From: Candidatus Heimdallarchaeota archaeon
GTDB lineage: Archaea; Asgardarchaeota; Heimdallarchaeia; JABLTI01
Length of the DNA: 14,610 nucleotides
Direction of reading: 5' to 3'
Assembly (NCBI GenBank): GCA_030614005.1
Contig: JAUWKS010000075.1
Span: 1 to 14,610 of the forward strand
The notes beneath the pieces were generated by a model. It was not told the origin of the DNA. It ran no database searches and worked only from the letters and a program-made list of their open reading frames with translations. The position numbers and the translations under genes were made by a program. Shown here piece after piece: positions 792-14,463 of this stretch (its first letter is position 1; the number at the start of each line of letters is the position of its first letter).

Positions 792-1736
792 TTACTTTTT
801 CTTTCTCCTCTTACGGATATAAAGACTGATTGAACTAACTGTAAGCAATGCTGGAATTGTAATTAGAATTTCGATACCAGCAATTCTTGCATCCCAAAAT
901 AGTTTACCCATTCTATAGCCAACAGCTTCTACATGCTGATGCAGAAAGAGATCAATAATCTTTCCATCTTCTGTTGTTCCATTATAATCCAAACATATAT
1001 GATAGCCATTTAGTACCCCTGTTGTTAAATCATATTCGTATTTCAAATCATAAAAACCAGCAATACACCAACCTTGATCCTCACCATCAGTAGGTACATA
1101 AAAATCCCTCCAATAACTCCATTCGAAAATTCCTTTTGAATCCTCCTTATCAAAAGCTGTAATAAACGTAAAACTACGTGTTTTATATAGCGGATCCGGG
1201 TCCATTGTTCCTCCTACTTCAGCAAGATATTCAAACAGTGGATCAACCACACTTAAGTCGAAAAAGTGTGTGTTAATTATCTTTGGTGTACCTTTATCAA
1301 ATAAGGATTGATCCCAAGAATTATTTAGTTCTGCCATAAGAATAGGCAAAAATAATAAATCAAGAATCGTATAGTTGTTCGAAGTATCTTTAGTCGTAAC
1401 TGTATCTTCTCCGATTGTAATAGTATACTCTATCTCATGACTAACTTCACTTGTTATGTGAACAGCATATTTAGACCCTACAGGATGATTAGTTTCACCA
1501 ATGAAAATACCGGTAGAAGACGTGCTCAAATCTCCATGTTGAACACTCCATTCTGATGTCACTACATCGTATTCATAATCCAATTCGACAATACTAGTAA
1601 AATCTGCTAATGAATTCGTTATATTCAGGAATAATAATATAGAAACTAGTAATAATACTATAATTTTGATTCTCTTCTTCAAGAAATATTCCCCCAAGAA
1701 TTTTTTTCTTACAATAACAAATTCTTCTCTATTCAT
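792..1736 (-). CDS. Secreted, C-terminally membrane-anchored surface protein (resembles the Asgard 'choice-of-anchor S' type); true start probably TTG at 1682
   Basis: Signal peptide KKRIKIIVLLLVSILLFLNITNSLA|D, C-terminal TM plus basic tail IRKRRKKK, motif YEYDLTTGVLNG shared with 1880..2776. Family name is from recollection, not from a search. Confidence 0.7.
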   Translation of the reverse strand: MNREEFVIVRKKFLGEYFLKKRIKIIVLLLVSILLFLNITNSLADFTSIVELDYEYDVVTSEWSVQHGDLSTSSTGIFIGETNHPVGSKYAVHITSEVSHEIEYTITIGEDTVTTKDTSNNYTILDLLFLPILMAELNNSWDQSLFDKGTPKIINTHFFDLSVVDPLFEYLAEVGGTMDPDPLYKTRSFTFITAFDKEDSKGIFEWSYWRDFYVPTDGEDQGWCIAGFYDLKYEYDLTTGVLNGYHICLDYNGTTEDGKIIDLFLHQHVEAVGYRMGKLFWDARIAGIEILITIPALLTVSSISLYIRKRRKKK

Positions 1737-1834
1737 TAGTTTTTTGGGGGCAAAAATTAACTAAAATTGAACTAGAGAAGCTTTTTATTTAGTTTTAAAG
1801 ATAGATAACTCCAACCTTGGAGGGGTGACTTATT

Positions 1835-2776
1835 ATAAACAATAAAATTGGGAAAATTTTATCACTAGTTCTATTAGGAATGCTAATTCAAACACAATTA
1901 TGTTCAGCAGATACATTTGGTGTCTCTGTTGGAGAAACATTTACTTATGAGTGTATAACTTCAGAACGAACATTAGTTTGGGGATCAAATTCAAGTTTGT
2001 CAGAAGGATATTCACTTGATGACCATCATTTTGCTGAAGGAACGGCAGTGTCAGTTGAAGTTACACATATTGATGACAATGTCTATTATGTTGTTTCTAA
2101 AGATGGTTTTGAAGCTTTTCATAGTTCAGATGCTTTATCACTGTCATTAGCAATACTATTCGAGGAAGGGTCTATCATCTACTCGTTTTACAGTATTATA
2201 AACCATATTGAACAATTGGGATGGAACCAAACGCTATTGGATCAAGGACCTTATTTACTATGTAGAGAATTATTTGTAGAAATTGATTCCACTTCATGGA
2301 GTGACCTTATTGATGTAGTAACTTCAAAAATTGAGCATTACTCCACAGCAATAGTAACATATGACGATTCATTTCTTGGAGAAATTGAAGTACTATATGT
2401 TAATAGTGACTCAACCTTTGCATACGAGTTTCATTATTCAGGCGTATTAAATGTAACGTATACCCCTACCAGTCCTATAAGTCCATGGACAAAATATAGT
2501 GATGATGTAGAGTACTATCAAAGTTTTGTCTATGATAAGACCACAGGTGCATTGCTTGGTATGCATTCATACGGTTCAATGACTGGAACAAGCAACGGAA
2601 CAAACTTTGAATATGCTGTAGATAGTCATATCGAAAAGGAAGGATATGATTTACCAGTAAGTATACTGAGTAATACTAAAGGATTCTCCGGGTACAGCAT
2701 TGCTATTGCTTTTGGAAGTATGACTACATTAGTCATGATTGCTGTTTATGTTAGAAGGAAAAAAGCAACCATTTAA
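1835..2776 (+). CDS. Secreted, C-terminally anchored surface protein, paralog of 792..1736; start extended upstream of ATG 1880
   Basis: Frame is open from 1829 and encodes a full signal peptide (INNKIGKILSLVLLGMLIQTQLCSA|D). C-terminal GFSGY-TM-RRKK; motifs FVYDKTTGALLG and HIEKEGYDLP. Exact start uncertain. Confidence 0.7.
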   Translation: MNNKIGKILSLVLLGMLIQTQLCSADTFGVSVGETFTYECITSERTLVWGSNSSLSEGYSLDDHHFAEGTAVSVEVTHIDDNVYYVVSKDGFEAFHSSDALSLSLAILFEEGSIIYSFYSIINHIEQLGWNQTLLDQGPYLLCRELFVEIDSTSWSDLIDVVTSKIEHYSTAIVTYDDSFLGEIEVLYVNSDSTFAYEFHYSGVLNVTYTPTSPISPWTKYSDDVEYYQSFVYDKTTGALLGMHSYGSMTGTSNGTNFEYAVDSHIEKEGYDLPVSILSNTKGFSGYSIAIAFGSMTTLVMIAVYVRRKKATI

Positions 2777-2814: not shown

Positions 2815-3063
2815 GTCATCTTTTTCTAATTTGAATTACAAACAATAGTTCAAAAGTTGTATAAAAGAGAAATAGAAACTCAATTTTGTGAACTCGCTTT
2901 TGTATTGTTATCTCCGAAGAACAAAACATCTCCTATGGTTGGTTTATTGCTGTGTTCGATGATGAATGATTATTTCATCTCAAAAACGCCGCTTTCTTGC
3001 TTTACTTTCTAAAGACTAATTCAAATTAATCAAGAACAATAAATTAGTTAGTAGAAGAGTTGA

Positions 3064-3426
3064 GTGATTAAGATGAAAATTTTAATAATTATTAATGATG
3101 CCTCATATGGAACCGAGAAAGCATTCAACGCTTTGCGGTTAGCCATGTCTGTGCAGAAAGAGCATAAAGATGTTGAAGTGAATGTTTTTCAGCTAGCGGA
3201 TGCCGTTACTTGTGCAATTCCCAATCAACAAACACCAAATGGGTACTATAATTTAGAGCGAATGTTGAAATCAGTTATTCGGAAAGGTAGAGAAATCAAG
3301 GCTTGTGGTGGATGTCTCAATGCCAGAGGATTAAAAGAAGTTGGGTTGATCGAAGGCATAGAGAGTAGTACTATGAGTCAATTATCACAATGGACGTATG
3401 ATGCTGCTAAAGTCATCACGTTCTGA
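3064..3426 (+). CDS. DsrE/YchN-like sulfur-relay family protein, copy A
   Basis: ASYGTEKAFNALRLA, FxLADAV, CGGCLNARG and QWTYDAAKVITF match the YchN/DsrE (COG1553) pattern. Confidence 0.9.
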   Translation: MIKMKILIIINDASYGTEKAFNALRLAMSVQKEHKDVEVNVFQLADAVTCAIPNQQTPNGYYNLERMLKSVIRKGREIKACGGCLNARGLKEVGLIEGIESSTMSQLSQWTYDAAKVITF

Positions 3427-3473
3427 TAGATAGTTTGTGAAACTAGATAAGAAAAGGAAAGCGAATGTAATAA

Positions 3474-3501
3474 TAGTGGACAATCCCGAATGTGAACCGT
3501 G
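3474..3501 (-). repeat. tRNA-3'-end repeat R1 (degenerate)
   Basis: Minus strand CACGG-TTCACAT-TCGGG-ATTGTCC-ACTA; aligns without gaps to R2-R7. Confidence 0.7.
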
Positions 3502-3562
3502 ATTAGTTAGAGAAGCACAAAATAAAATTCACTTAAAATTAGAGAAAGGAATATATACCAAA

Positions 3563-3594
3563 ACAGACATAGTATACACGAGAACCATGTCTGT
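3563..3594 (+). promoter_or_regulatory. Putative TA operator (8-bp inverted repeat) between TATA-like box and start codon
   Basis: acagacat (3563-3570), 16 nt, atgtctgt (3587-3594); atatata at 3551-3557. Confidence 0.45.
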
Positions 3595-3892
3595 ACTATC
3601 AGTGAGAATAGATAAAGAGCTGGAAGAGAAACTAAAGCTTCTAATGGAAAAACAGAAAATAATTGACAAGTCATCTTTTATTCGAAGATTACTCGATGAA
3701 TCAGTACAAGAAAAACTAATTGACATTTTGTGTAAAGAAGTTAAAAGAAAAAACATAAGTGCGTGGAAAGCCGCAGAACTCGCCCAGATGTCTTTAAGAG
3801 GGATTATGCATGAACTTGCTAAGCGAGATGTAAAAACATATGACGAAGTATCGTTAGAACAAGATTTAGCTTTTGTTGATAGAGAAGGATAA
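3587..3892 (+). CDS. UPF0175-family antitoxin with N-terminal ribbon-helix-helix
   Basis: LSVRIDKELEEKL...RRLL (RHH) followed by ISAWKAAELAQMSLRGIMHELAKRDV and LEQDL; coupled to a DUF3368 gene. Confidence 0.85.
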   Translation: MSVLSVRIDKELEEKLKLLMEKQKIIDKSSFIRRLLDESVQEKLIDILCKEVKRKNISAWKAAELAQMSLRGIMHELAKRDVKTYDEVSLEQDLAFVDREG

Positions 3893-3896
3893 AACA

Positions 3897-4409
3897 ATGA
3901 TAGGGATAACAAACGCTTCACCGTTAATCTATTTGGGAAAATTAGGCATAATAGAACTCCTCCCAAAATTATTCTCAAGAGTAATCACAACTACAACAGT
4001 AAAAGAAGAAGTTTTACAGGTAAAAGCTGCACCTGAATATCCTATACTTACAGAAGTTTTCGAGTCATGGTTAGAAGTAGTGAAAGTCGAAGAAGAGCTT
4101 GTGCAAAAAATAGCTGCTCTACAAATACATAGAGCAGAAGCTGAAGTAATAGCCTTAGGGAGAGAGCTGCTAGCAAAAGAAGAAGAAATAATAGTAATAA
4201 TAGATGATCTTCTAGCAAGAGAAATAGCTGTTAGTCTAGGATTGACTGTAACAGGAACAATTGGCATTATACTAGAAGCATTAAAAGAGAAAATTGTCTC
4301 AAAAAAAGCAGCGAAAATGTTAGTAGAACAATTAATAACAACGACAAATTTTAGATTGTCAGCAAAAGTTTATGCAAAAACATTGAAAGAAATAGAAACA
4401 AGAGGATAA
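3897..4409 (+). CDS. DUF3368 PIN-domain (VapC-like) toxin
   Basis: ITNASPLIYLGK, IHRAEAEVIALG, IIDDLLAR and TGTIGII are DUF3368 signatures. ATG 3897 lies 4 nt after the antitoxin stop. Confidence 0.85.
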   Translation: MIGITNASPLIYLGKLGIIELLPKLFSRVITTTTVKEEVLQVKAAPEYPILTEVFESWLEVVKVEEELVQKIAALQIHRAEAEVIALGRELLAKEEEIIVIIDDLLAREIAVSLGLTVTGTIGIILEALKEKIVSKKAAKMLVEQLITTTNFRLSAKVYAKTLKEIETRG

Positions 4410-4503
4410 AAATTATCAGTTAAGACTTTTAGAGATAAGATGGTTTGATTGAATTTCTTATTTTCATTTTGATTATAGTAATCATCAATTGATCAGTCCG
4501 AAA

Positions 4504-4704
4504 CTAAACCAGTTTTTCTGTGGGAATGGGATCATTAGATAACTTTCTTAATTTTTCTTGGAAAGCTTCAACCTCGGATTGAAAATCACTTAAGAATGTA
4601 GCTCTTAGTAAAACTAACCTCCCAGATTCTATTTAAAGAAATAATCTGGATCCTGGTTTGATGTTGAGTTTCTCACGTATTTCTTTAGGAATTAAAATTC
4701 CACC
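4504..4704 (-). pseudogene. AbrB/MazE-family antitoxin pseudogene (paralog of 8513..8743)
   Basis: GILIPKEIREKLNIKPGSRLFL*IESGRLVLLRATFLSDFQSEVEAFQEKLRKLSNDPIPTEKLV*. In-frame TAA at 4633-4635; 42-nt deletion removes the start codon. Confidence 0.9.
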
Positions 4705-4820
4705 GAGAGTACATAGTGGGAACGATGTTATGAATTTAATGTTTGGTTGACAAAGTGAAAATTTTAGAAGTAAAGCAAGAAAAAATGATTCAACGAATAA
4801 AATGAAAGAGTAAGAGAAAA

Positions 4821-4853
4821 TGATGGGCAATCCCAGATGTGAACCAGGGACTT
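4821..4853 (-). repeat. tRNA-3'-end repeat R2
   Basis: Minus strand AAGTC-CCTGG-TTCACAT-CTGGG-ATTGCCC-ATCA. Confidence 0.9.
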
Positions 4854-4907
4854 TTGAAAAAAGGATAAACTCTAAGAGGGAAAGATAGCCATCTGTATAA
4901 AACTCCC

Positions 4908-5201
4908 TTAAAGTGAATAGATTTCTTTATCTTCCTCTCGAGGGAATTGAGCATCCTTGTCATAATGAGTGTCCTTGTATTGCTCAAAATCAGCGATAAT
5001 TTCCTGAGCTAATTTCTCTGTTAGGCGAGGAACTGAAGAAGCAATAGTAAGAAAATCTTCAAAGTTACTAGTAGAGTATTGTATACAGAGGTCAATTGTC
5101 TCTTGTAAAGTAATTTTGCGACCTAACTGCAGGATCAATCTTGCATGAAGATCATCTAGAGCCTTCTTATCAGTGATCTTAATAACAGCCATAAGCATCA
5201 A
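4908..5201 (-). CDS. Orphan VapB-like antitoxin candidate (probable start ATG 5192)
   Basis: Small protein with helical N-terminus and acidic C-terminus in a TA array, followed by an SD and a 6-codon stub MAIFPS*. Function inferred from context. Confidence 0.55.
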   Translation of the reverse strand: MMLMAVIKITDKKALDDLHARLILQLGRKITLQETIDLCIQYSTSNFEDFLTIASSVPRLTEKLAQEIIADFEQYKDTHYDKDAQFPREEDKEIYSL

Positions 5202-5299
5202 TAATATACTATGCTACCTCGGCATAAAAGTCTACTGAAAAGTAAAGGACAAATGAAAATCGATGGAATAAAACTAATGAATGCGAGGAGAAGAAGAAG

Positions 5300-5329
5300 A
5301 ACGCTAGTGTCAAGATAGAGGTATTTCAG
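5300..5329 (-). pseudogene. Truncated VapC N-terminal stub
   Basis: (C)TG AAA TAC CTC TAT CTT GAC ACT AGC GTT = xKYLYLDTSV, overlapping the antitoxin stop TGA; the PIN-like sequence ends there. Confidence 0.65.
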
Positions 5330-5607
5330 CGCTTACGATCTTCTGCAACAAGTTTAACTATTGAAGAATCAAACAGTTTTTTCCCAACAGCTTCTAATTG
5401 TTTTTCGGTTAAACTTGGAGGAGTTCCCAATAGCTCAAGACTCGGAGAAGTTAATCGCTTTTCAGTGAAATCTTTAAGCTCCTTTGAAAGAAGAGCACGT
5501 ATAGTCTCACTTAGGTTGGCATAATACCCGAGGGCAATTAATTGAACTAATAGCTCTAAGTCTTCTTTTGCTATTCGAAAATTAACTACTTCATCAACCA
5601 TAAGCAA
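5326..5607 (-). CDS. Ribbon-helix-helix (CopG/VapB-like) antitoxin, toxin partner truncated
   Basis: VVNFRIAKEDLELLVQLIALGYYANLSETIRALL (RHH); C-terminal IVKLVAEDRKR resembles archaeal VapB tails. Confidence 0.75.
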   Translation of the reverse strand: MLMVDEVVNFRIAKEDLELLVQLIALGYYANLSETIRALLSKELKDFTEKRLTSPSLELLGTPPSLTEKQLEAVGKKLFDSSIVKLVAEDRKR

Positions 5608-5623
5608 AAAACATCCTATATGC

Positions 5624-5652
5624 AGATATAGATACAGATTTGTACTATATCT
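5624..5652 (-). promoter_or_regulatory. Putative operator palindrome upstream of the RHH gene
   Basis: agatatag-a-taca-gatt-tgta-ctatatct. Confidence 0.45.
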
Positions 5653-5684
5653 TTCCAGAAAGAAAAAAATGGTGAGGAAAGTAA

Positions 5685-5718
5685 TAGTGGTAAATCCAGG
5701 ATTCGAACCAGAGACTTC
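5685..5718 (-). repeat. tRNA-3'-end repeat R3
   Basis: Minus strand GAAGTC-TCTGG-TTCGAAT-CCTGG-ATTTACC-ACTA. Confidence 0.85.
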
Positions 5719-5811
5719 TAATAAAAGATAAGAAGAGTATTTAAAATTAAAAATTACTAATAGAATAGAAGGTTACAACAGGAAAAAAAAGTAGATTTAT
5801 CTGGTGAAGTA

Positions 5812-5892
5812 ATGTCAATAGGAAAAGTAGGCTCTAAAGGTGAATTCAAATTAAGAAAGAACAATAAATTGGTTAATAGAAGAGCTGGGTGA
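5812..5892 (+). pseudogene. 5' stub of AbrB-family antitoxin fused to the DsrE leader (26-codon ORF)
   Basis: MSIGKVGSKGEF matches MSIGKVGSKGEL of 13090..13323, and the leader agatttatctggtgaa is shared. The sequence then switches to the DsrE upstream region; TGA overlaps the DsrE GTG. Confidence 0.8.
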
Positions 5893-6251
5893 TTAAGATG
5901 AAAGTGTTAATAATTATTAATGATGCCTCATACGGAACCGAGAAAGCATTCAACGCTATGCGTTTAGCCATGACTTTACAAAAAGAACACAAAGATGTTG
6001 AAGCAAATGTTTTTCTGCTTGCTGATGCCGTTACTTGTGCAATTCCCAATCAGCAAACACCTGATGGGTACTATAATTTAGAGCGAATGTTAAAATCGGT
6101 TATTCGGAAAGGTGGAGAAATCAAGGCTTGTGGTGGATGTCTCAATGCCAGAGGATTAAAAGAAGTTGGGTTGATCGAAGGCATAGAGAGTAGTACTATG
6201 AGTCAATTAGCACAATGGACGTATGATGCTGCTAAAGTCATCACGTTCTGA
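5889..6251 (+). CDS. DsrE/YchN-like sulfur-relay family protein, copy B
   Basis: 111/120 aa identical to copy A by manual count. Confidence 0.9.
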   Translation: MIKMKVLIIINDASYGTEKAFNAMRLAMTLQKEHKDVEANVFLLADAVTCAIPNQQTPDGYYNLERMLKSVIRKGGEIKACGGCLNARGLKEVGLIEGIESSTMSQLAQWTYDAAKVITF

Positions 6252-6292
6252 TGAATAAATCCTACATGGTTATTATTAGGTTTAATTAATAA

Positions 6293-7039
6293 GTGACTAG
6301 TGTTTTACTAACAAGAGAAACATTGTTAAAAACTAGAATGCAAGAGCAATTTGTACGTAAACCATTACAAGTAAGAAAGGATGTTAAAAAACATCGGAAG
6401 GAAATGCTCATTCTATTTCTGGCAGCTTTTATCTATTCTATCGTCTATGGCATCTTTGAATATACTGTAATGTATACAAATCCGGGCTATGTTAGAAATG
6501 GCATCATTTCCCCTTACGTAAATTGGACAATTATGTACGTAAGTTTAGTTATACTAATGACAATTGTTACTCGAGGGAAAATCGAGTTAATAATTTTGGG
6601 AGTGTTTTTCTTCCTAGTGTTTGAAGATTTGGTGTATCACATATGCTATGGAATAGATATACAAGCCTATCCATTTCCAGTATATGATTGGTGGGATGAA
6701 TATCTGGCGAGCTTTCGCGTGCTGGGTCGGTTGGGGCAAGCGGTGCCATTTTGGCCATATGCACCACTCTATTATCTGCCAGGTTTCTTGATTCTACTAC
6801 TACAATTTAGTATAGGCATAATAAATGTTAAAGGATTCAGAATAGTAAACTGGATAATCGAACCATTCATAGTAGCAATCATTGTCGGGTTGCTTTGGAA
6901 TAATGACGTTTTTGCTTTAATTTCCTTAATAGTCATTCCAATAATCGCTTATAGCTATATCATTACCTTGATAGTGCTCTATAAAAAAGGACTGATAGAA
7001 ATATCAGAAAACTCTGCAGAAGAAATTAAAGAAGAATAG
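6293..7039 (+). CDS. Uncharacterised multi-pass membrane protein
   Basis: About 6-7 hydrophobic segments; start codon uncertain; stop lies 13 nt before R4. Confidence 0.7.
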   Translation: MTSVLLTRETLLKTRMQEQFVRKPLQVRKDVKKHRKEMLILFLAAFIYSIVYGIFEYTVMYTNPGYVRNGIISPYVNWTIMYVSLVILMTIVTRGKIELIILGVFFFLVFEDLVYHICYGIDIQAYPFPVYDWWDEYLASFRVLGRLGQAVPFWPYAPLYYLPGFLILLLQFSIGIINVKGFRIVNWIIEPFIVAIIVGLLWNNDVFALISLIVIPIIAYSYIITLIVLYKKGLIEISENSAEEIKEE

Positions 7040-7052
7040 AAGGGAGATAAAA

Positions 7053-7080
7053 TGGTGGGCGATCCCAGATTTGAACTGGG
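7053..7080 (-). repeat. tRNA-3'-end repeat R4
   Basis: Minus strand CCCAG-TTCAAAT-CTGGG-ATCGCCC-ACCA: perfect T-stem, canonical T-loop, CCA. Confidence 0.95.
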
Positions 7081-7100
7081 AATGCTTTTTTCAATATTGA

Positions 7101-7580
7101 TTAAATTGATAACAATTTACCAATACTTGTTTTGAAATTTTGAGAAGAGGGATTAAAAACAGGGATGGATTTGAGATTGGCTTTAAAATCAGAATCAAAA
7201 GTAATGAAAGCACTAGCTTTGTATTTTAGAGCAGTAGTGGCATGTAAGGCATCAGCAGCATATAGATTGGATGCAAAGATATGTTCTCGAGAAGTAATAA
7301 TAAGAGCATGAGAAACGGGAACAAGTAAAAGAATCTTCTTCTTAACCATCTCTCCAACATCACTCAGAAAAAAGTCAATAGCTATTTCAGCATTCTTTTT
7401 TGAGATAGTCCCTAAATTTACTTGTTTCTTGAAGGCTCGAAACATCTCAATAAGACACCATTCACTAGTAATAGCAGGAAAGTCAGGATGAACTTGAGAA
7501 AATAACCAATCAACTATCGAAGCATCTTCAATAGGACAATAAGCATGATAGAAGACATTGGTGTCAAGATAAAGAGCCAT
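7101..7580 (-). CDS. vapC: VapC PIN-domain toxin
   Basis: YLDTNVF, TSEWCLIE, YAADALH and FITFD: the conserved acidic PIN residues are present. Confidence 0.9.
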   Translation of the reverse strand: MALYLDTNVFYHAYCPIEDASIVDWLFSQVHPDFPAITSEWCLIEMFRAFKKQVNLGTISKKNAEIAIDFFLSDVGEMVKKKILLLVPVSHALIITSREHIFASNLYAADALHATTALKYKASAFITFDSDFKANLKSIPVFNPSSQNFKTSIGKLLSI

Positions 7581-7816
7581 TATTCCTCTTGCCTCACAGA
7601 ACGAATCGCTTCAACACCAGATTGAAAAGGTTTCTGTTGCTGTTTCCTAAGATACTCACGTAATTCAGCTCGAGAAGAAATACCAAGCTTTTCTTGAACA
7701 TAAGAGAAAATTCCACCACGAACTGCTTCACTACGAGACTTTATCACGCCACGTTCAATAAGCTGATCTAACCATTCAAGAAGTTCTTCGTCTAATGAAA
7801 CGGATATTGTAGTCAA
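7580..7816 (-). CDS. vapB: CopG/RHH-family antitoxin (VapB-like)
   Basis: ISVSLDEELLEWLDQL...SRSEAVR; C-terminal GVEAIRSVRQEE; stop overlaps the vapC start. Confidence 0.85.
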   Translation of the reverse strand: MTTISVSLDEELLEWLDQLIERGVIKSRSEAVRGGIFSYVQEKLGISSRAELREYLRKQQQKPFQSGVEAIRSVRQEE

Positions 7817-7841
7817 AATACCAACTCAACTAATCACTAAA

Positions 7842-7877
7842 ATAGTACTGTTTTTGTACTATAAAAACAATAGTACT
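7842..7877 (-). promoter_or_regulatory. Triple-box RHH operator overlapping the TATA box
   Basis: atagtac-tgttttt-gtactat-aaaaaca-atagtac: alternating 7-bp boxes at a 14-nt period; TTTTTATA on the minus strand at 7860-7867. Confidence 0.6.
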
Positions 7878-7903
7878 TGTAAGTGGAGAAAAATAGAGAG
7901 AAA

Positions 7904-7940
7904 TGGTGGGCGAGGCGAAATTTGAATCCGCGACTTCCAA
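7904..7940 (-). repeat. tRNA-3'-end repeat R5 (different T-stem)
   Basis: Minus strand TTGGAAGTC-GCGGA-TTCAAAT-TTCGC-CTCGCCC-ACCA. Confidence 0.9.
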
Positions 7941-8011
7941 TTAGATAAGAAAGTTTGATCAAGTTTCTTAGGAAAGATGATTACAACCAATTGCTGTATT
8001 GTATTCCTCAT

Positions 8012-8497
8012 TTAACGTTTTAATGAAGCGAATTTTGATTCATCAAATTCCTTTCCTTTGTTTAATATCAAAGGTGGATCAAACACAGGGTCAATTCGAA
8101 GTAAACTTGTGATTCTTAACAAATTTTTATCATTAGTGACAATCGTTTCAACATCTTTAGATAGCATACTCGCTAATATTAGGCAATCTCGTCCACCAAC
8201 TCCTTTACTTCGATTTGACTTTAAAAGCTCTAGCGCTATTAACATAATATCAGTATCGACAGGCACAAAGGTGATGTTTTCCTGGGTAACCCATTTTAAA
8301 ATTAACTTTTCTGTGGAGATTTTGTCTAATTTGGGAACCGCATAGAGATTATGGGAGACTTCAAGGGGGATTATCGTACTAAGCATAATTTGTTCATTTG
8401 CCAAGATTCCTTCGAACCATTTCTGAACACTGGTATTTGCTATGGCATTGGGATCAAAATAATAAATCCAGATTTGACTGTCAATTGCAATCATCAC
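8012..8497 (-). CDS. vapC: VapC PIN-domain toxin
   Basis: IAIDSQIWIY, STIIPLEV, GGRDCLILA, IVTNDKNL. Confidence 0.9.
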   Translation of the reverse strand: MMIAIDSQIWIYYFDPNAIANTSVQKWFEGILANEQIMLSTIIPLEVSHNLYAVPKLDKISTEKLILKWVTQENITFVPVDTDIMLIALELLKSNRSKGVGGRDCLILASMLSKDVETIVTNDKNLLRITSLLRIDPVFDPPLILNKGKEFDESKFASLKR

Positions 8498-8512
8498 GAG
8501 TTTCCTCCAAAC

Positions 8513-8743
8513 CTAAAACAATTTTTCTGTTGGAATGGGATCAGTAGTTAACTTTCTTAGTTTTTCTTGAAAAGATTCAAGCTCAGATTGAAGGTCGCTT
8601 AAGGATGTAGCTTGAAGTAAAACTAACCGCCCAGCTTCTACTTTAAGAAATAACTTGGAGCCTGGTTTGATGTTTAGTCTTTTACGAATTTCTTTAGGAA
8701 TTAAAATTCTACCTTTTGTATCAACAATTATATCGGAACCCAT
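8513..8743 (-). CDS. AbrB/MazE/SpoVT-family antitoxin
   Basis: VDTKGRILIPKEIRKRLNIKPGSKL swapped-hairpin motif, directly upstream of vapC. Confidence 0.9.
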   Translation of the reverse strand: MGSDIIVDTKGRILIPKEIRKRLNIKPGSKLFLKVEAGRLVLLQATSLSDLQSELESFQEKLRKLTTDPIPTEKLF

Positions 8744-8750
8744 AAGAAGT

Positions 8751-8770
8751 CCACCAAGTGTACTGGGTGG
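8751..8770 (-). promoter_or_regulatory. Putative AbrB operator palindrome
   Basis: CCACC-a-AGT-gt-ACT-g-GGTGG between a TATA-like box (about 8779-8786) and ATG 8743; decayed in the pseudo-copy at 4700-4719. Confidence 0.5.
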
Positions 8771-8879
8771 GAATGAGAATATAAATTTAACTGATAAGTT
8801 AGTGGATTGAGAATTTCAGAAATTAAATTAAAAAAAATCTTGAGATAATAGAAGAGTGGAAAGAGTAGAGAATGAAAAA

Positions 8880-8913
8880 TGGTGGGCGATCCCAGATTTG
8901 AACCGGGGATTTC
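8880..8913 (-). repeat. tRNA-3'-end repeat R6
   Basis: Minus strand GAAATC-CCCGG-TTCAAAT-CTGGG-ATCGCCC-ACCA. Confidence 0.95.
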
Positions 8914-8926
8914 TTTTTTGTAAGGT

Positions 8927-9541
8927 TCATTGATTTTTTTGCATTTTTTTCAGTAGAAATTCTTTTACTTCGTTTTGTTCATACTGAAAATGAGTTGTTA
9001 CTTCCCCTAGTATTTTCAACAATTTATTGAATTTTGATTCTATGACTTTTCTCTCTATTTCTGCATTTGTTATTTTCTTTTTATTTTTCACTTTCTTCCA
9101 ATATTTCAGCAGGGCTACTGTTGTGTATGCATTTTCATTTACTATTGTTATTTTTGACATTCCATATGTTATTACTCTGAATCTTGCATATGGCAGGTAT
9201 TGTATGCATACTGTTATCTTGTCTTTTGATTTGAAAATAATCCTTTCCTCTTGCAAGTTTACTTTGGCGCTTCTAATGAACTGTCTTCTTATCATATTGT
9301 GATATCCTTTCAGCAGTTCCCTAACTGTTTTTTTTGTTTTTGATACTGTGAAATAGATTGTAAAATCATAACCATCTATGAACATTGATGATTTCTTATC
9401 AGTAACTATTCTTATTTCCGCGCTGCTATTCCATTGCCTCATTATTTTTATTATTGTATGTACAGCTGGTTGATATATTGGCTTTTCTTGTACCAGCAGG
9501 TTTGCATATAGTCTTAATTCAGCTTCCTCGCTTATCAGCAT
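8927..9541 (-). CDS. Hypothetical basic protein downstream of the feo genes
   Basis: 204-aa Lys-rich ORF; no recognised family; stop lies 13 nt from R6. Confidence 0.6.
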   Translation of the reverse strand: MLISEEAELRLYANLLVQEKPIYQPAVHTIIKIMRQWNSSAEIRIVTDKKSSMFIDGYDFTIYFTVSKTKKTVRELLKGYHNMIRRQFIRSAKVNLQEERIIFKSKDKITVCIQYLPYARFRVITYGMSKITIVNENAYTTVALLKYWKKVKNKKKITNAEIERKVIESKFNKLLKILGEVTTHFQYEQNEVKEFLLKKMQKNQ

Positions 9542-9617
9542 ACTAGGTTACCGTTCCTTTTTTGTTTTTTTTTTTGTGTGTGTTGTTATTGTTGTTAGCT
9601 GATTTTTCCGCTTATTA

Positions 9618-9890
9618 TTACTCATCTTTTTTCTCTTTCTTTACCAGCAAATATTTTGGTCGATATTTTGATGAGTTACAGCTTTTCATTGAGCATCCAT
9701 TACAACTTCTAGAGCTACAATTCGCTTGTTTTATTTCTACTGCTGCTATTGTTTTTATGTATCCTTTTTGTTCAAGTTGTTTAATTATCATTTCGACTAC
9801 TTTTTCATCCATAGCTAATTTTCTGGCTATCATTGATGTTTTTAGCAGTCCACCATTTTCTAGATAGAACAGTACTTTTGACATAGACAT
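9618..9890 (-). CDS. feoC: FeoC-like winged-helix protein with C-terminal Cys cluster
   Basis: HTH segment IARKLAMDEKVVEMIIKQLEQKGYI followed by CSSRSCNGCSMKSC; lies in the feo operon. Confidence 0.75.
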   Translation of the reverse strand: MSMSKVLFYLENGGLLKTSMIARKLAMDEKVVEMIIKQLEQKGYIKTIAAVEIKQANCSSRSCNGCSMKSCNSSKYRPKYLLVKKEKKDE

Positions 9891-9916
9891 TTTTCTTCCT
9901 CCGAAAAAAAAGAGTA

Positions 9917-10423
9917 TTAGGAAGAAGCTGCTTGAGCTTTTTCCTTTCGCACATCTCGAAACTTGATGAATAATAGCAAGAATATTGGTAATGATATTAT
10001 TCCTAGTAGTATTGGGAAGTATAGTGATGAGAATTCTGTGAAGTCTGGTGCTACTGCTTCTGCTGCTGCATCCACTAGCACAGCGATTATATCTGCCACT
10101 ACCACTAATACATATAGTAAACCAAATACTACTCCTACTCCTGAACCGATTAGGAGAAATGAATTTCCTTCAGGATTTTTCCCTCTGAAATATAATATGG
10201 CTGACCATAGGATAATTAATCCGATTATCACCAGAGCAATTCCTGTCATGAATTCACCTGTCCAACCTAAGAGACTGGTGTTGGCAAATAGAGGCCATTC
10301 TGCTGTTGCTTCGAAAGTTGTCATAAATTGCAGGACTCCAAATGTCATAAAGATCAAAGATAGGACTATTGAGTAGGTTATTCGTAGCCATAATGGAATA
10401 TTTTTAGTTTCATTGATTGTCAT
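9917..10423 (-). CDS. Uncharacterised 4-TM membrane protein inside the feo operon
   Basis: Four hydrophobic segments; SD GAGGTGA; lies between feoB and feoC. Confidence 0.75.
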   Translation of the reverse strand: MTINETKNIPLWLRITYSIVLSLIFMTFGVLQFMTTFEATAEWPLFANTSLLGWTGEFMTGIALVIIGLIILWSAILYFRGKNPEGNSFLLIGSGVGVVFGLLYVLVVVADIIAVLVDAAAEAVAPDFTEFSSLYFPILLGIISLPIFLLLFIKFRDVRKEKAQAASS

Positions 10424-10436
10424 TCATCTCACCTCA

Positions 10437-12467
10437 TCAGATAGCAGCCGCTTGTAAACCGAAACCAACTATAGCTCCAGTTATGTAATAGGCTATTATT
10501 GCTGCAACATAAGCTATTACCAATGTCAGACCCATATTGAAGAACATCCACTTCCAGCTGTTTGTCTCTTGTTTTATTACTCCAAGTGCAGCAACACATG
10601 GGACATAGAGCAAGGTAAACATCATAAATGCCATTCCTGCAGCCGGTCCTATTGTCGCGGCTATTTGTGTTTGAAGTGCTGGATTATCTTCCGCTAAGTC
10701 ATCACCTATTCCAAATGTCGTTCCTAGTGCTCCTACCACTATTTCTTTTGCAATTAATCCGAAGAGCAATGCTGCCCCGAATTGCCAGACTAGTCTTGAT
10801 CCATCGGTCTTCATCCACCAGAAGAGGTAGCTAATAGCAGTTCCAACTTCTTCCATAATGCTGATACCTCCGAATTGAACGTTGCTAAATAGCCAGATCG
10901 CTGCTACAGATATCATGATGACTGAGGTGGCTTTTTTGAGGAACATTTTCCCTCTGTCCCAAGTTTTTCGGGACACGCCTTTTGCTGTTGGAGATGTATA
11001 TGGTTGAAGTTCCATAATAAATGGAGTTCCTTCTCCTCTAAAGAGAGTATTTCGTAATAGAAGTGCAACTAAGATTGCTACCACTATTCCTGTTAGATAG
11101 AGAACTAAAGTTATTGTACTTGGTGAACCTAAAGTAGAGGCAAATGCTCCACCTATGAGAATATACACTGGTAATCTTGCACCGCATGACATGAAGCCAT
11201 TGACCATAATGGTTGTCATTCGATCGTTTTCATTTTTGATTGCTCTTGTAGCCATTATTGCTGGTACATTACAACCAAAGCCAAGTAACATCGGAATAAA
11301 TGATTGACCATTAAGACCAATGCGATTCATCATTTTGTCCATGATAAAGGCAACTCGAGAGAGATATCCCGAATCTTCTAAAAACGCTATTGCTACGAAC
11401 AATAGCAGGATGTTTGGTAAGAAGACTATTACTGATCCAACACCATCAACTAGTGTACCTACAACGAAATTCATGAAGGCACCATCATGAATCAGGAAAA
11501 GCAAATCACCAAGATAACCAAAGAGCATTTCAACTAATCCTATGAAAGGATCGCCCACTGTAAATGTGAATTGAAATACACCCCACATAATTGCGATGAA
11601 TAGAGGAATCCCCCAAATCTTATGAGTGAATACTTCATCCAACATATCTGAAAGATTCCACTCATCAGATTCTGTTTTCGTCTGAACATTTCTGATATAG
11701 TTGCTTATTGCTGAATATCTTGCATTAGAAATAGCTACCATACCGTCGCCATCTAGTAAATCATCAGTTACTTCATCTATTTTCTTTGAAAAAGCACGCT
11801 TTGATATCCCTAAGGAATTTGCTATTGCCCATGTAGATTCATCATTCTCTAATAGAGAGATTGCCAACCAACTTGCAGGATATTTGGTTCCCACGTATGA
11901 TTTAATCTCAGCTTCAACCTTCGAGACTGCATCGCCAACTTTTCCATCATAAGTTAATGGACCGACTGCTAATCCTGCAGCCAATACATCGCAAATTGAT
12001 TCTTTTAAGATCTCAATTCCATCGTTTTTTGTAGCAATTGTTGGAATTACTGGAACACCCAAAACCTTGGACAATTGATCAGTATCAATCGTTACACCTT
12101 TGCTTTCAGCAAGATCAACCATGTTTACAACGACTAAAACCTTCATGCCCAATTCAAGCAATTGTGTTGTTAGATAGAGATTTCTTTCGAGATTTGAACC
12201 ATCTATAATATCAATAACCAAATCTGGTTTTTCTTTTAAGATGTAGTCCAGAGCAATTCGTTCATCAATAGAATACGGTGAAAGAGAATATACACCCGGA
12301 AGATCAATAACTTGTATCTCTTCCTGTTCTTCACCAGTCATCATTCCTTCTTTTTTCTCAACTGTACATCCCGGAAAATTAGCAACCGTCTGTCGTAAAC
12401 CTGTAAGAGCATTAAAAATAACACTCTTTCCGACGTTTGGATTACCAATTAATGCAATGCTTGTCAT
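10437..12467 (-). CDS. feoB: Ferrous iron transporter B
   Basis: G1 GNPNVGKS, NFPGCTVEKKEG, DLPGVYSL, NMVD, plus the TM region LGFGCNVPAIMATR, SCGARLP, LYVPCVA. Confidence 0.98.
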   Translation of the reverse strand: MTSIALIGNPNVGKSVIFNALTGLRQTVANFPGCTVEKKEGMMTGEEQEEIQVIDLPGVYSLSPYSIDERIALDYILKEKPDLVIDIIDGSNLERNLYLTTQLLELGMKVLVVVNMVDLAESKGVTIDTDQLSKVLGVPVIPTIATKNDGIEILKESICDVLAAGLAVGPLTYDGKVGDAVSKVEAEIKSYVGTKYPASWLAISLLENDESTWAIANSLGISKRAFSKKIDEVTDDLLDGDGMVAISNARYSAISNYIRNVQTKTESDEWNLSDMLDEVFTHKIWGIPLFIAIMWGVFQFTFTVGDPFIGLVEMLFGYLGDLLFLIHDGAFMNFVVGTLVDGVGSVIVFLPNILLLFVAIAFLEDSGYLSRVAFIMDKMMNRIGLNGQSFIPMLLGFGCNVPAIMATRAIKNENDRMTTIMVNGFMSCGARLPVYILIGGAFASTLGSPSTITLVLYLTGIVVAILVALLLRNTLFRGEGTPFIMELQPYTSPTAKGVSRKTWDRGKMFLKKATSVIMISVAAIWLFSNVQFGGISIMEEVGTAISYLFWWMKTDGSRLVWQFGAALLFGLIAKEIVVGALGTTFGIGDDLAEDNPALQTQIAATIGPAAGMAFMMFTLLYVPCVAALGVIKQETNSWKWMFFNMGLTLVIAYVAAIIAYYITGAIVGFGLQAAAI

Positions 12468-12709
12468 GGTTCAATTACCTCCACCAAGATTAAGCTTGCA
12501 CTTTTTTTACGGAATGAAAGTTGATACCCTTTAATCAAAAAGTCAATCGGATCACCCAAAGGAGCAACACGCACTACTTCAATTGTCTCGCCAGGTATTA
12601 CACCCATCTCGAGAATAGCTTTCTTTGCAGTGTTTTCTCCTTTGAATTTCTTGATTGTGGCTTTTTGACCAACTTTTAATTTATCCAGAGTTATTTCCAT
12701 AGTAATCAA
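12464..12709 (-). CDS. feoA: Ferrous iron transport protein A (start TTG 12709 or ATG 12700)
   Basis: LEMGVIPGETIEVVRVAPLGDPI...LSFRK; stop overlaps the feoB start (ATGA). Confidence 0.95.
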   Translation of the reverse strand: MITMEITLDKLKVGQKATIKKFKGENTAKKAILEMGVIPGETIEVVRVAPLGDPIDFLIKGYQLSFRKKSASLILVEVIEP

Positions 12710-12835
12710 CCTTTAAATCTGAAACAGCACGAAAAAGTAGTGCGTTATTATAACCCACTTATGAGTTTTAAATAACTGAATCTCCAGTTTTCTTCTGGAT
12801 ATTTGCTGTTTCACCAGATAGTTAATAGGTATAAA

Positions 12836-12883
12836 TGTTAGGAAAACCTAACAGTTATAATTTGTTAGGAGTTCCTAACAAAT
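12836..12883 (-). promoter_or_regulatory. Two DtxR/SirR-type iron-repressor boxes upstream of feoA
   Basis: tgTTAGG-aaaa-CCTAAca (12836-12853) and atttgTTAGG-agtt-CCTAAcaaat (12860-12883); the TTAGG-N4-CCTAA core matches DtxR/SirR operators. Confidence 0.7.
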
Positions 12884-12998
12884 ATAAAGATTCCTATAGA
12901 AAAGAATTTTGAGGGAAAGAGCAAAAATTGTATTCGTTTAATATAAAAAAGAAGGAATCTAAATATAAATAGAAAGACAAAAACAACTTAGAATGAAA

Positions 12999-13035
12999 TG
13001 GTGGGTGATCCCGGATGTGAACCAGGGACTTCCAA
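12999..13035 (-). repeat. tRNA-3'-end repeat R7
   Basis: Minus strand TTGGAAGTC-CCTGG-TTCACAT-CCGGG-ATCACCC-ACCA. Confidence 0.95.
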
Positions 13036-13089
13036 AGATTTTATGAAATGTTTTTATACCAGAAAAAAGAAGATTTATCTGGTGAAAAA

Positions 13090-13323
13090 ATGTCAATCGG
13101 CAAAGTAGGCTCAAAAGGGGAATTATTCCCACCAAAGAAAATTAGAGAAAAAATTGGGCTAAAGGAAGGACAAAGGGTTTTGTACAGAATAGTGCAAGGA
13201 AGATTAGTGGTAGAAAAAATTCCTTCAGCTGAAGAATTATTGGAAAAACCGGCAAAAGTCACAATTACCTTTGAAGAATTCAAAAAACATAGAAGGAAAT
13301 TAAGCAAGGATGCAGAGAAATGA
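13090..13323 (+). CDS. AbrB/MazE/SpoVT-family antitoxin
   Basis: IGKVGSKGELFPPKKIREKIGLKEG; SD GGTGA at 13081 supports ATG 13090; ATGA overlap with vapC. Confidence 0.9.
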   Translation: MSIGKVGSKGELFPPKKIREKIGLKEGQRVLYRIVQGRLVVEKIPSAEELLEKPAKVTITFEEFKKHRRKLSKDAEK

Positions 13324-13778
13324 AGCTGTTATTGGATAGCTCTTTCTTTATGCCTTTTTTAGCTGTAGATATTGTACAATGCCCAAGAAAGGCAATACTA
13401 GAATTAATGACAAAAGAAGAAATCATCAGATCAGAATTGGTAATTTTTGAAGTGTCTGCAAAAGGAAGCAAGTTAGTCAATAATGGGGAAATATCAATTG
13501 AAGAATTAACACAGGGAATAACAGCAATACAATACCTAGAAAAAATGGAAACTATTCCCATACATTATACAGAAATACAAGCATTAGCAAGCGAACTGCG
13601 AAAAAGTCACAGTAATCTTATTGATTGTTTAATGGTTGCAACAGCAGTTTATTACGCAGAGGGAATGCTAACACTAGATAAAGAACTAAAGAAAAAAGTG
13701 CATGAAGAGTGGAATGATATAATAGAGAGCATAAACAAAGAATTCAAGATGATTTTATGGGGAGAATATAAAAAATAA
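13320..13778 (+). CDS. vapC: VapC PIN-domain toxin
   Basis: LLLDSSFF, SELVIFEV, NLIDCLMVATA, LTLDKEL. Confidence 0.85.
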   Translation: MKLLLDSSFFMPFLAVDIVQCPRKAILELMTKEEIIRSELVIFEVSAKGSKLVNNGEISIEELTQGITAIQYLEKMETIPIHYTEIQALASELRKSHSNLIDCLMVATAVYYAEGMLTLDKELKKKVHEEWNDIIESINKEFKMILWGEYKK

Positions 13779-14163: not shown

Positions 14164-14463
14164 CTCATTTACTAAATTGTTATAGCTAAACTTTTTTTAT
14201 AATTGATTAGAGAGATAGCTAAAAGTATTCATGTTTTACTAAAAACTATTATGATATTGTATCTGAAGATTATAACATTTTTATTGGTTTTACTATTTGA
14301 ACTTGTTTAGAACAAATAGTACTTGTTTTTGCCGAAATGGACTTCTAGACCTTAAAGAGGAAGTGATTTTTGTAAAGCAAAATATAACAGAAAAAGAACA
14401 TAAGAGAATAGATTTTAGTTTCAAAACAAACATACTTCATATCCCATATACCTCTATCATTTC

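Follow-up and report, generated by a model that had tools for sequence, protein, structure and literature searches.

The 14,610-nucleotide (nt) contig JAUWKS010000075.1 of a Candidatus Heimdallarchaeota archaeon (assembly GCA_030614005.1), which was analyzed entire and is called the window below, carries seven repeats (R1 to R7) that derive from the 3' part of a tRNA-Val(GAC) gene, as displaced or cassette-borne copies, and that punctuate an array of small gene cassettes without an integrase. In three of these sites (R1, R2, and R7) the T-loop reads TTCACAT, the adenine at tRNA position 58 being replaced by cytosine (A58C). On balance, we consider it probable that this change arose once, in the absence of selection for tRNA function, and was multiplied by recombination at the fragments themselves. 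The presence of C58 in many sites is a natural tracer, which indicates that the fragments, and not the working tRNA gene alone, act as recombination substrates, and it shifts the view of such an array from the scars of serial integration toward a cassette platform with its own sites. New here are the lineage of loop variants and the one-way decay pattern that makes a loop variant informative.

The window corresponds to contig C55 of a metagenome-assembled genome (G000; 3.62 Mb, 33.5% G+C, 90% complete), whose tRNA genes have introns and a genome-encoded CCA. Further sites come from the genomes of relatives (G001, G004, G005, G006, G008, G009, G010, and G011), from a genome of another family (G065), and from a metagenome contig (L054; 4.2 kb, 35% G+C); two contigs of G010, C13 and C26, are also cited as L026 and L060, respectively. 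The repeats were detected by an nhmmer profile search and a covariance model. The sample of sites is small (about 35) and its members are related; substitutions were counted in 23 CCCGG-type fragments against their consensus.

The seven tRNA-tail sites

All seven repeats are 44 nt long and lie in the same orientation on the minus strand (Table 1). They consist of the 5-bp T-stem, the 7-nt T-loop, the 3' acceptor strand, the discriminator A, the encoded CCA, and a pyrimidine-rich (T-rich) trailer, and in place of the complete cloverleaf of a functional tRNA gene they carry only the part of tRNA-Val(GAC) from roughly position 42 to 76. Longer copies begin with the last anticodon-stem bases and the variable loop (GGAAGTC), and the 5' extent varies among fragments; the minimal unit common to the sites always includes both T-stem strands. 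A weak dyad symmetry beyond the T-stem was noticed by eye. ARAGORN called no tRNA gene in the window (0 genes), and a scan of G000 with Rfam RF00005 gave no match on C55.

The original prediction, made from the DNA letters of the window, had sorted the T-loops into TTCACAT (R1, R2, and R7), TTCAAAT (R4 to R6), and TTCGAAT (R3), and this assignment is seen to be correct in the aligned sites. The ACTA end that it recognized in both R1 and R3 is likewise present, their ends reading ...CCACTATTA with CCA changed to CTA (taatagtgg on the plus strand). The 3' half of R3 has two derived states in common with a site of G001 (L034:1422-1465).

R5 had been attributed to another isoacceptor. This origin was rejected, as the 5' extension and acceptor of R5 are of the Val(GAC) type and its T-arm fits an alternative allele seen in the working tRNA-Val(GAC) of G008 (GGGGA/TCCCC, CTCGCCC), from which R5 stands one compensatory pair change apart; another isoacceptor is therefore not needed to explain it. 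The 5' T-stem strand of R5, GCGGA, is the same as that of Pro-type fragments on contig C8 of G000, the flanking tRNA parts of R5 being Val-type, and the identity could be a coincidence or the result of an exchange between arrays.

Distribution of the A58C loop

A58 pairs with T54 and is near-universal in tRNAs. It is present in all 32 real tRNAs that ARAGORN identified in G000, none of which carries TTCACAT (the genome's own tRNA-Val(GAC) is unassembled), and it is replaced by C58 in R1, R2, and R7; among the T-arms of G000, TTCACAT occurs on C55 only. In the tRNA-Val(GAC) genes of relatives (n = 7) the loop is TTCAAAT in six and TTCGAAT in one. A Val-type pattern with TTCACAT retrieved no full tRNA from 185,579 species genomes or from the JGI metagenomes, its matches in the species genomes lying only in unrelated non-tRNA DNA, and it had no match in IMG/VR, so that no free element with the site was found there.

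Four more A58C sites, adjoining different cassettes, were found in three other assemblies (L054, G010, and G065), which gives seven sites in four assemblies overall. Beyond these, no further A58C site was seen in 82 class genomes, and a metagenome scan for TTCACAT sites returned one relevant contig, L054. There, the sites at 1285-1328 and 2088-2131 flank cassette B, the toxin-antitoxin cassette next to R7 in the window, and the site at 2088-2131, which lies behind the cassette in the same position as R7, also reads TTCACAT. The two sites around this cassette, named b and c, differ at 2 of 40 positions, and site b equals the full consensus except for C58. The site in G010 (C26:46246-46263) reads ...CACAT-CCGGG-ATCGCCC-ACCA, and an R1-like remnant (TTCACAC plus TTGTCCA) is located exactly at a cassette junction on G065:C85. 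An R1-like remnant (TTGTCCA) also adjoins DsrE in G010:C26. Taken together, the A58C sites adjoin six different neighbors on their upstream side and six on their downstream side; tRNA-unfit fragments therefore still took part in rearrangement.

A second variant, TTCCAAT (A57C), behaves like TTCACAT: identical sites stand between different neighbors in G008 and G065, and further examples of the loop come from G001 and from a Pro-type fragment of G005:C108. TTTAAAT (C56T) was rejected as a class marker because it turns up on three backgrounds unrelated to one another, one of them an Ala-type fragment on C110, and represents ordinary GC-to-AT decay. At L060 10238-10312, a 5' half-site (CCCGG-TTCAA) is followed after 22 nt by a complete site whose A58C loop is damaged (TCTGG-ACACAT-CCGGG...), which the covariance model treats as a single site with a T-loop insertion.

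Direction of change at the sites

The bare TTCACAT heptamer is unremarkable in number in the window (5 observed versus 3.5 expected), and the signal is positional. That at least three of seven aligned copies carry one common transversion at one column has a probability of P ~0.002, based on the transversion rate of the 23 related fragments and corrected for 28 columns and two transversion types. Within these fragments, loop positions 54, 55, 59, and 60 are invariant and all loop variation falls at positions 56 to 58. Outside positions 57 and 58, 55 of 55 changes run from GC to AT and none from AT to GC; at positions 57 and 58, all nine changes run from AT to GC (eight A to C, one A to G).

Given this one-way decay, C58 is difficult to acquire but readily lost, and because its gain is rare, its occurrence at seven sites in four assemblies is best explained by descent from very few gains, and probably from a single one. 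A58C thus seems to be a rare gain that was passed on by site copying and not the outcome of repeated decay. Random independent mutation of the sites, which the original prediction had set against copying, is not borne out, as positions 57 and 58 hold the only AT-to-GC exceptions and an independent triple origin has the low probability given above. The strict GC-to-AT decay with its exception at 57 and 58 also provides a means of polarizing site histories in other arrays.

Proposed copying at the fragments and rival explanations

Under the reading that we favor, A58C would have originated in a single event, either in a copy freed from tRNA selection or in a cassette-borne site. New cassettes would then insert, or cassettes would be exchanged, at the fragments, the working tRNA gene not being the sole target, and each event would leave the insert with a site at either end. 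Ordinary GC-to-AT decay would remove the variant again, and the three loop types in the window would record which sites have a copying history in common. If entry occurred only at the intact tRNA gene, a tRNA-unfit loop could not multiply unless a working tRNA had once carried it; that the fragments, or cassette-carried sites, are themselves recombination substrates is the simpler reading. The original prediction had already suggested that these sites were copied from one another, which agrees with the lack of C58 in any tRNA examined, with the four further sites, and with a change against the GC-to-AT direction. Its suggestion of stand-alone recombination sites fits a tRNA-unfit variant found beside many different neighbors.

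Several observations weigh against this reading. The tRNA-Val(GAC) gene of G000 is missing from the assembly, no 5' half of it was found, and its loop could not be read. Outside the loop, the A58C sites resemble one another no more closely than random sets do (P = 0.46), so a single origin is argued from the rarity of AT-to-GC change instead of from a tree. Decay is faster in the GC-rich core than in the AT-rich flanks, which blurs the mapping of junctions. Furthermore, cassette B is followed by a TTCACAT site in G000 and in L054, which is distant, but by a TTTAAAT site in G010 and G004, which are closer, and losses or site replacement are needed to account for this pattern. Finally, neither an excised circle nor a near-identical pair of empty and filled sites nor an enzyme was found, and the copying route is thus inferred. 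A site of G010 (f19761) was tried as the empty site for insertion of the block from R7 to R2 and dropped, as the DNA downstream of it, which has an extra small gene and identities of 78-82%, is not clearly orthologous.

The original prediction had gone one step further and proposed that loop classes could decide which sites recombine. In this rather unlikely scenario, the 7-nt T-loop would serve as the overlap for strand exchange between the two arms of the T-stem inverted repeat, and A58C and A57C sites would recombine only like with like; the TTCACAT sites could then, with the same low probability, be a separately mobile set (for example, R2 with R7). Crossover in the T-loop is a recognized subsite of tRNA-targeting integrases in the Islander work (PMC4383910), and the choice of target gene by mycobacteriophage Ms6 depends on a single base of the tRNA-Ala T-loop (PMC1762012). 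The invariance of positions 54, 55, 59, and 60 next to the variable 56 to 58, the constant presence of both T-stem strands in the minimal unit, the occurrence of TTCACAT as an adjacent pair around one insert in both multi-copy arrays (R2/R1 and L054 b/c), and three truncated sites that end inside the T-loop (L054 427-470, L060 near 10293, and L060 near 7400) all point the same way. However, unlike loops often flank one cassette (R7/R6, R4/R3, and R3/R2 in the window, and further cases in G010, G004, G008, G001, and L054), the loop behind the same cassette differs among genomes, and sites behind the same upstream cassette can differ in the whole T-arm (R5 versus G010:C26; G004 f1871 versus G010 f19761). 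Moreover, no chimeric T-stem (CCCGG-type 5' strand with GGGGA-type 3' strand) was seen although both types occur in one array, two truncations lie outside the loop (window ~4424 and L060 ~5935), and no recombinase is linked to the sites. The mixed-class arrays argue against strict gating, although mutation after insertion could also produce such mixing.

Islander-type islands are defined by a crossover at a fixed subsite (anticodon loop, T-loop, or T/acceptor junction). Here, comparisons of sites with a cassette in common on one side only, be it upstream or downstream, gave no single junction, the GC-to-AT decay of the core confounding the mapping. Apparent junction zones at the site edges were rejected for the same reason, as core decay outpaces that of the flanks. 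While copying and stand-alone sites from the original prediction are retained, partner choice by loop class is therefore unsupported, yet not refuted, in view of the mixed arrays, the P value of 0.46, and a crossover that is not placed in the T-loop. A fuller version, slightly less probable again, would make the T-loop heptamer the strand-exchange region of an integrase-less cassette system with A58C and A57C as heterospecific classes, served by an XerA-like enzyme in trans or one that reads hairpins. If true, the array would be split into independently mobile sets, a natural counterpart of engineered lox spacer variants on tRNA tails.

It is improbable, in our view, that the common C at these positions is a convergence caused by recurrent selected inactivation, with changes at 57 and 58 favored in displaced fragments. 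The benefit, equally improbable, might lie in avoiding tRNA mimicry (toward T-loop enzymes such as the methyltransferase that forms 1-methyladenosine at positions 57 and 58, m1A57/58, or toward processing enzymes) or in locking a cassette against recombination with the tRNA gene. This would explain why the sole AT-to-GC changes of the core lie at 57 and 58 (A to C eight times, A to G once), why TTCCAAT recurs in a Pro-type fragment, and why A58C sites are not closer to one another outside the loop, and G000 does encode GCD14/TrmI-family methyltransferases. However, most fragments, old decayed ones included, retain TTCAAAT or TTCGAAT, and the other G000 arrays (Pro on C8, Ala on C110) are without these variants. 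The cassette B sites with TTCACAT in both G000 and L054, and the combination of A58C with TTGTCC in both R1 and the G065 remnant, point to inheritance instead.

Somewhat more doubtful still is a working or tolerated C58 allele of tRNA-Val(GAC), present or past, with the TTCACAT fragments as its 3' ends displaced by classical integration. Such an allele in G000 is conceivable because the tRNA-Val(GAC) of this genome is unassembled; R7, the site nearest to the expected tRNA side, combines TTCACAT with a CCA end and well-formed stems, L054 site b differs from the full consensus only by C58, and the 3' halves of tRNA-Val(GAC) vary so greatly within the genus that 3' halves may be replaced. Against it stand the invariance of A58 in the 32 tRNAs of G000 and the seven tRNA-Val(GAC) of relatives, the failure of the Val-type pattern to find a full TTCACAT tRNA in the species genomes or JGI metagenomes, and the near-universality of A58, which pairs with T54. 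G010, in addition, has an A58C site and yet a working tRNA-Val with TTCGAAT.

A reverse-transcription scar, in which some copies went through an RNA intermediate made from mature tRNA and misincorporation opposite m1A57 and m1A58 turned A into C, is highly improbable and was rejected: archaeal TrmI methylates tRNA adenines 57 and 58, exactly where the anomalous changes lie, TrmI-family genes are present in G000, and the 5' extent of the fragments is variable, but no reverse transcriptase (PF00078) was found in G000 (90% complete), and gene-type trailers and cassette DNA follow the fragments and are homologous to DNA behind intact tRNAs of relatives, so that the copies were made at the DNA level, the CCA being uninformative because it is genome-encoded here.

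The enzyme

No integrase was found in the arrays when the open reading frames (ORFs) of the window and the G010 array were examined; no window ORF has an integrase domain, and no unit holds an integrase remnant. G000 has one PF00589 gene, on C58 and cut by the contig end, which is XerA-like (77 bits versus a cut-off of 220). The XerA-like gene is single-copy, occurs in 6 of 11 relatives (63-89% identical), and lies away from the arrays; G010 has a full-length ortholog (C8, from 49852 onward). This divergent recombinase is a candidate only, and any action on the sites would have to be in trans; homologous exchange between copies of the ~45-60-bp repeat is an equally plausible route. A 10.5-kb unit behind the tRNA-Val of G010 encodes a RadA-like ATPase and nucleases but no integrase.

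Comparison with known systems

As with heterospecific spacer variants of the lox/FRT type, a single change in the central overlap could create classes that recombine only with themselves. The variation described here is confined to three central loop positions, but these natural arrays mix classes and the T-loop is only a candidate overlap.

The array as a whole is closest to tRNA-anchored islands with scattered partial tRNAs that result from serial integration, such as Islander-type tandem arrays (PMC4383910) and the tycheposons of Prochlorococcus (bioRxiv 10.1101/2020.12.28.424599); elements of the Heimdall group are known to integrate at tRNA genes (PMC8813620). As in those islands, co-oriented partial tRNA 3' ends separate accessory units behind a tRNA gene, older units lie farther from the tRNA, and the cargo includes genes of nutrient-uptake and defense type. 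Displaced 3' tRNA-gene DNA in direct orientation is found at the far end of the units (seven fragments), as Islander expects, but the tyrosine integrase of each unit is absent from the window and the G010 array. In further contrast, the window units lack even an integrase remnant, a unit may consist of a single toxin-antitoxin pair and measure only 0.8 kb, the cassette order is reshuffled between close relatives, and a tRNA-unfit loop variant has multiplied, which simple serial entry at an intact tRNA does not predict.

For Ms6, a single T-loop base decides the tRNA gene and the 7-base loop is likely the strand-exchange region (PMC1762012). Its attachment site resembles the present sites in that the common core spans the T-arm and acceptor end, and its logic is that of the original prediction; Ms6, however, has its own integrase and a mapped core, whereas here no integrase is linked and the crossover is not placed in the loop.

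With archaeal integrons (PMC9668308), for which integrase-less attC clusters offer a related comparison, the array has in common small cassettes, one-directional hairpin-capable sites, the sharing and reordering of cassettes between genomes, and the frequency of toxin-antitoxin cassettes. It nevertheless fails all defining integron features: the sites are tRNA 3' ends with the 5-bp stem and 7-nt loop of a T-arm instead of attC with its R/L boxes and imperfect hairpin with extrahelical bases, no IntI, attI, or Pc was found in the window or the arrays of relatives, and the cassettes have their own promoters, lie on both strands, and often contain several genes, whereas integron cassettes are mostly promoterless, hold one ORF, and point one way.

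By its lack of an own enzyme, the array most resembles the Xer-dependent dif modules of Acinetobacter plasmids (PMC6449649, PMC13141974). These are also small accessory modules, often toxin-antitoxin, with short bounding sites and without an internal recombinase gene, and the housekeeping tyrosine recombinase of the host is believed to move them; the sole tyrosine recombinase here is the single-copy XerA-like one. On the other hand, pdif sites resemble the chromosomal dif, which has two ~11-bp arms and a 6-bp spacer, and alternate in orientation, whereas the present sites are tRNA-derived and all direct.

The parent gene and its locus in relatives

In the same genus, the locus runs from tRNA-Val(GAC) through fragments and cassettes to tRNA-Ala(GGC) and then tRNA-Gly(TCC), whereas the arrays of G000 and G010 end instead at a DsrE-GGR border. 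An intact tRNA-Val(GAC) heads matching arrays in G001, G004, G005, G006, G008, G010, and G011. In G010, an overlap of 106 nt (100% identity) joins contigs C13 and C26 into one continuous locus from tRNA-Val to DsrE-GGR.

Working tRNA-Val(GAC) genes within the genus have the T-arms CCCGG/CCGGG, GGGGA/TCCCC, GGGAG/CTCCC, and GAGAG/CTCTT and the acceptors ATCGCCC, CTCGCCC, and CTCGTCC, the 5' acceptor strand changing to match, as in GGACGAG/CTCGTCC of G010 (L026, G010:C13, 3895-4003). The whole T-arm and acceptor stem vary in this way among L026 (G010), L032 (G008), L028 (G005), and L027 (G006), and an intron of ~31 nt after position 38 is present in some of the working genes and absent from others. 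The sites of the G010 array mismatch the 3' half of G010's own tRNA-Val. Across 30 sites, T-stem pairing is kept in 92% of cells, with many double changes; kept pairing is not in itself proof of selection on the fragments because it is expected if the alleles formed inside working tRNAs.

The 4-kb contig C85 of G065 (L033) is 97-100% identical to L031 (G006:C152) over parts of the region with tRNA-Gly, tRNA-Ala, and cassette C, and relative to G006 it has a 1.16-kb insert exactly after the CCA of a site. The likeness of this contig to a genome of genus g1 reflects either mis-binning or very recent transfer.

Cassettes between the sites

In the window, the repeats delimit small units (toxin-antitoxin pairs, DsrE, and a Feo operon), of which the smallest measures 0.8 kb, and the cassettes hold two to five genes on either strand (Table 1). 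Several recur elsewhere: cassette A in G010 (94%), G008 (90%), and L054, with different neighbors; cassette B in G010 (90%), G004 (84%), and L054, and behind tRNA-Ala(TGC) in G009 (75%); and cassette C in G001, G004, and G009 (73-75%). In other genomes, cassettes related to A and B also occur within Pro- and Ala(TGC)-type arrays. The cassette order differs between G000 and G010, the cassettes common to both being 90-94% identical.

Table 1. Sites, site remnant, and cassettes of the window (positions in nt of the 14,610-nt stretch; sites written in tRNA orientation).
Feature	Position	Strand	Description
R1	3468-3511	-	Decayed tRNA-Val(GAC) 3' fragment; stems CACGG/TCGGG, loop TTCACAT (A58C; plus-strand 3490-3496), acceptor ATTGTCC, end ACTA
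R2	4815-4858	-	Stems CCTGG/CTGGG, loop TTCACAT (A58C; plus-strand 4837-4843), acceptor ATTGCCC, end ATCA
R3	5679-5722	-	Stems TCTGG/CCTGG (one mismatch), loop TTCGAAT, acceptor ATTTACC, end ACTA
R4	7047-7090	-	Stems CCCAG/CTGGG, loop TTCAAAT, ATCGCCC-ACCA
R5	7898-7941	-	Alternative T-arm GCGGA/TTCGC, loop TTCAAAT, CTCGCCC-ACCA
R6	8874-8917	-	Stems CCCGG/CTGGG, loop TTCAAAT, ATCGCCC-ACCA
R7	12993-13036	-	Stems CCTGG/CCGGG, loop TTCACAT (A58C; plus-strand 13015-13021), ATCACCC-ACCA
Site remnant	4410-4432	-	5' extension ...AAAGTC alone remains, fused to the end of the DUF3368 gene; compared with R5
DsrE copy 1 and upstream region	3004-3460	+	Distal array border; GGR-DsrE border also in G010:C26
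Cassette C	3587-4409	+	UPF0175 antitoxin-like gene (3587-3892) and DUF3368/PIN-like gene (3897-4409)
Decayed partial copy of the AbrB-PIN cassette of 7942-8873	4433-4814	-	82% over 230 nt
Cassette D	4908-5607	-	Two small ORFs (97 and 93 amino acids), the second weakly RHH/CdrS-like
DsrE copy 2 and membrane protein	5833-7039	+	DsrE (5889-6251) and membrane protein of 248 amino acids (6293-7039)
Cassette A	7101-7816	-	RHH antitoxin (7580-7816) and PIN toxin (7101-7580)
AbrB-PIN cassette	8012-8743	-	AbrB/MazE antitoxin (8513-8743) and PIN toxin (8012-8497); 93% identical copy in G010:C26
Large cassette	8927-12709	-	FeoA (12464-12709), FeoB (10437-12467), membrane protein (9917-10423), FeoC-like winged helix-turn-helix protein (9618-9890), protein of unknown function of 204 amino acids (8927-9541)
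Cassette B	13090-13778	+	AbrB antitoxin and PIN toxin; upstream of R7 in tRNA orientation

The window has two copies of the DsrE gene with its upstream region (3004-3460 and 5833-6252, 90% identity), of which copy 1 adjoins R1. G010:C26 has the border copy only, directly joined to the GGR gene, and two secreted-protein genes of the window (792-2776) are absent between DsrE and GGR there. Every genome with the RHH-PIN cassette has a palindromic AGTACT...AGTAC motif ahead of it (window 7835-7880, L054 500-535, and L060 6608-6654), which is probably the operator/promoter of this toxin-antitoxin pair. A motif of ~37-44 nt (gaacaaatagtacttgtttttgccgaaatgg...) at window 14322-14368 recurs with 91-97% identity on unrelated contigs of G000 (C102), G004, G005, G008, and G009 and can be described as a short dispersed conserved element.

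Other arrays and inserts

A second array of G000 lies behind tRNA-Pro(TGG) (C8:35896-40736) and comprises five Pro-type 3' fragments. These read GCGGA/TCCGC and CTCGGCC with the loop TTCGAAT, compared with CCGGA/TCCGG, CCCGGCC, and the loop TTCAAAT in the resident tRNA. The units include ORFs of 407, 211, 94, and 174 amino acids, and no ORF of the size of an integrase-type recombinase was seen among them, no family search having been made for the first two. Ala-type fragments occur on C110 of G000 at 51077, 54652, and 58422. In the array on L060, a ~22-nt direct repeat (aaaaatct(c)ttcaaactcacac; 8310-8335 and 9797-9822) flanks a secreted-protein gene that is without tRNA-type sites, and this repeat may represent a different insertion route. 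Lastly, tRNA-like 3' ends of the form GGGAG-TTCAACT-CTCCC ... ACCA, uncalled by ARAGORN, are found in G000 at C64:~3331 and C94:~20297, and they may be missed intron-containing tRNA genes or further fragments.

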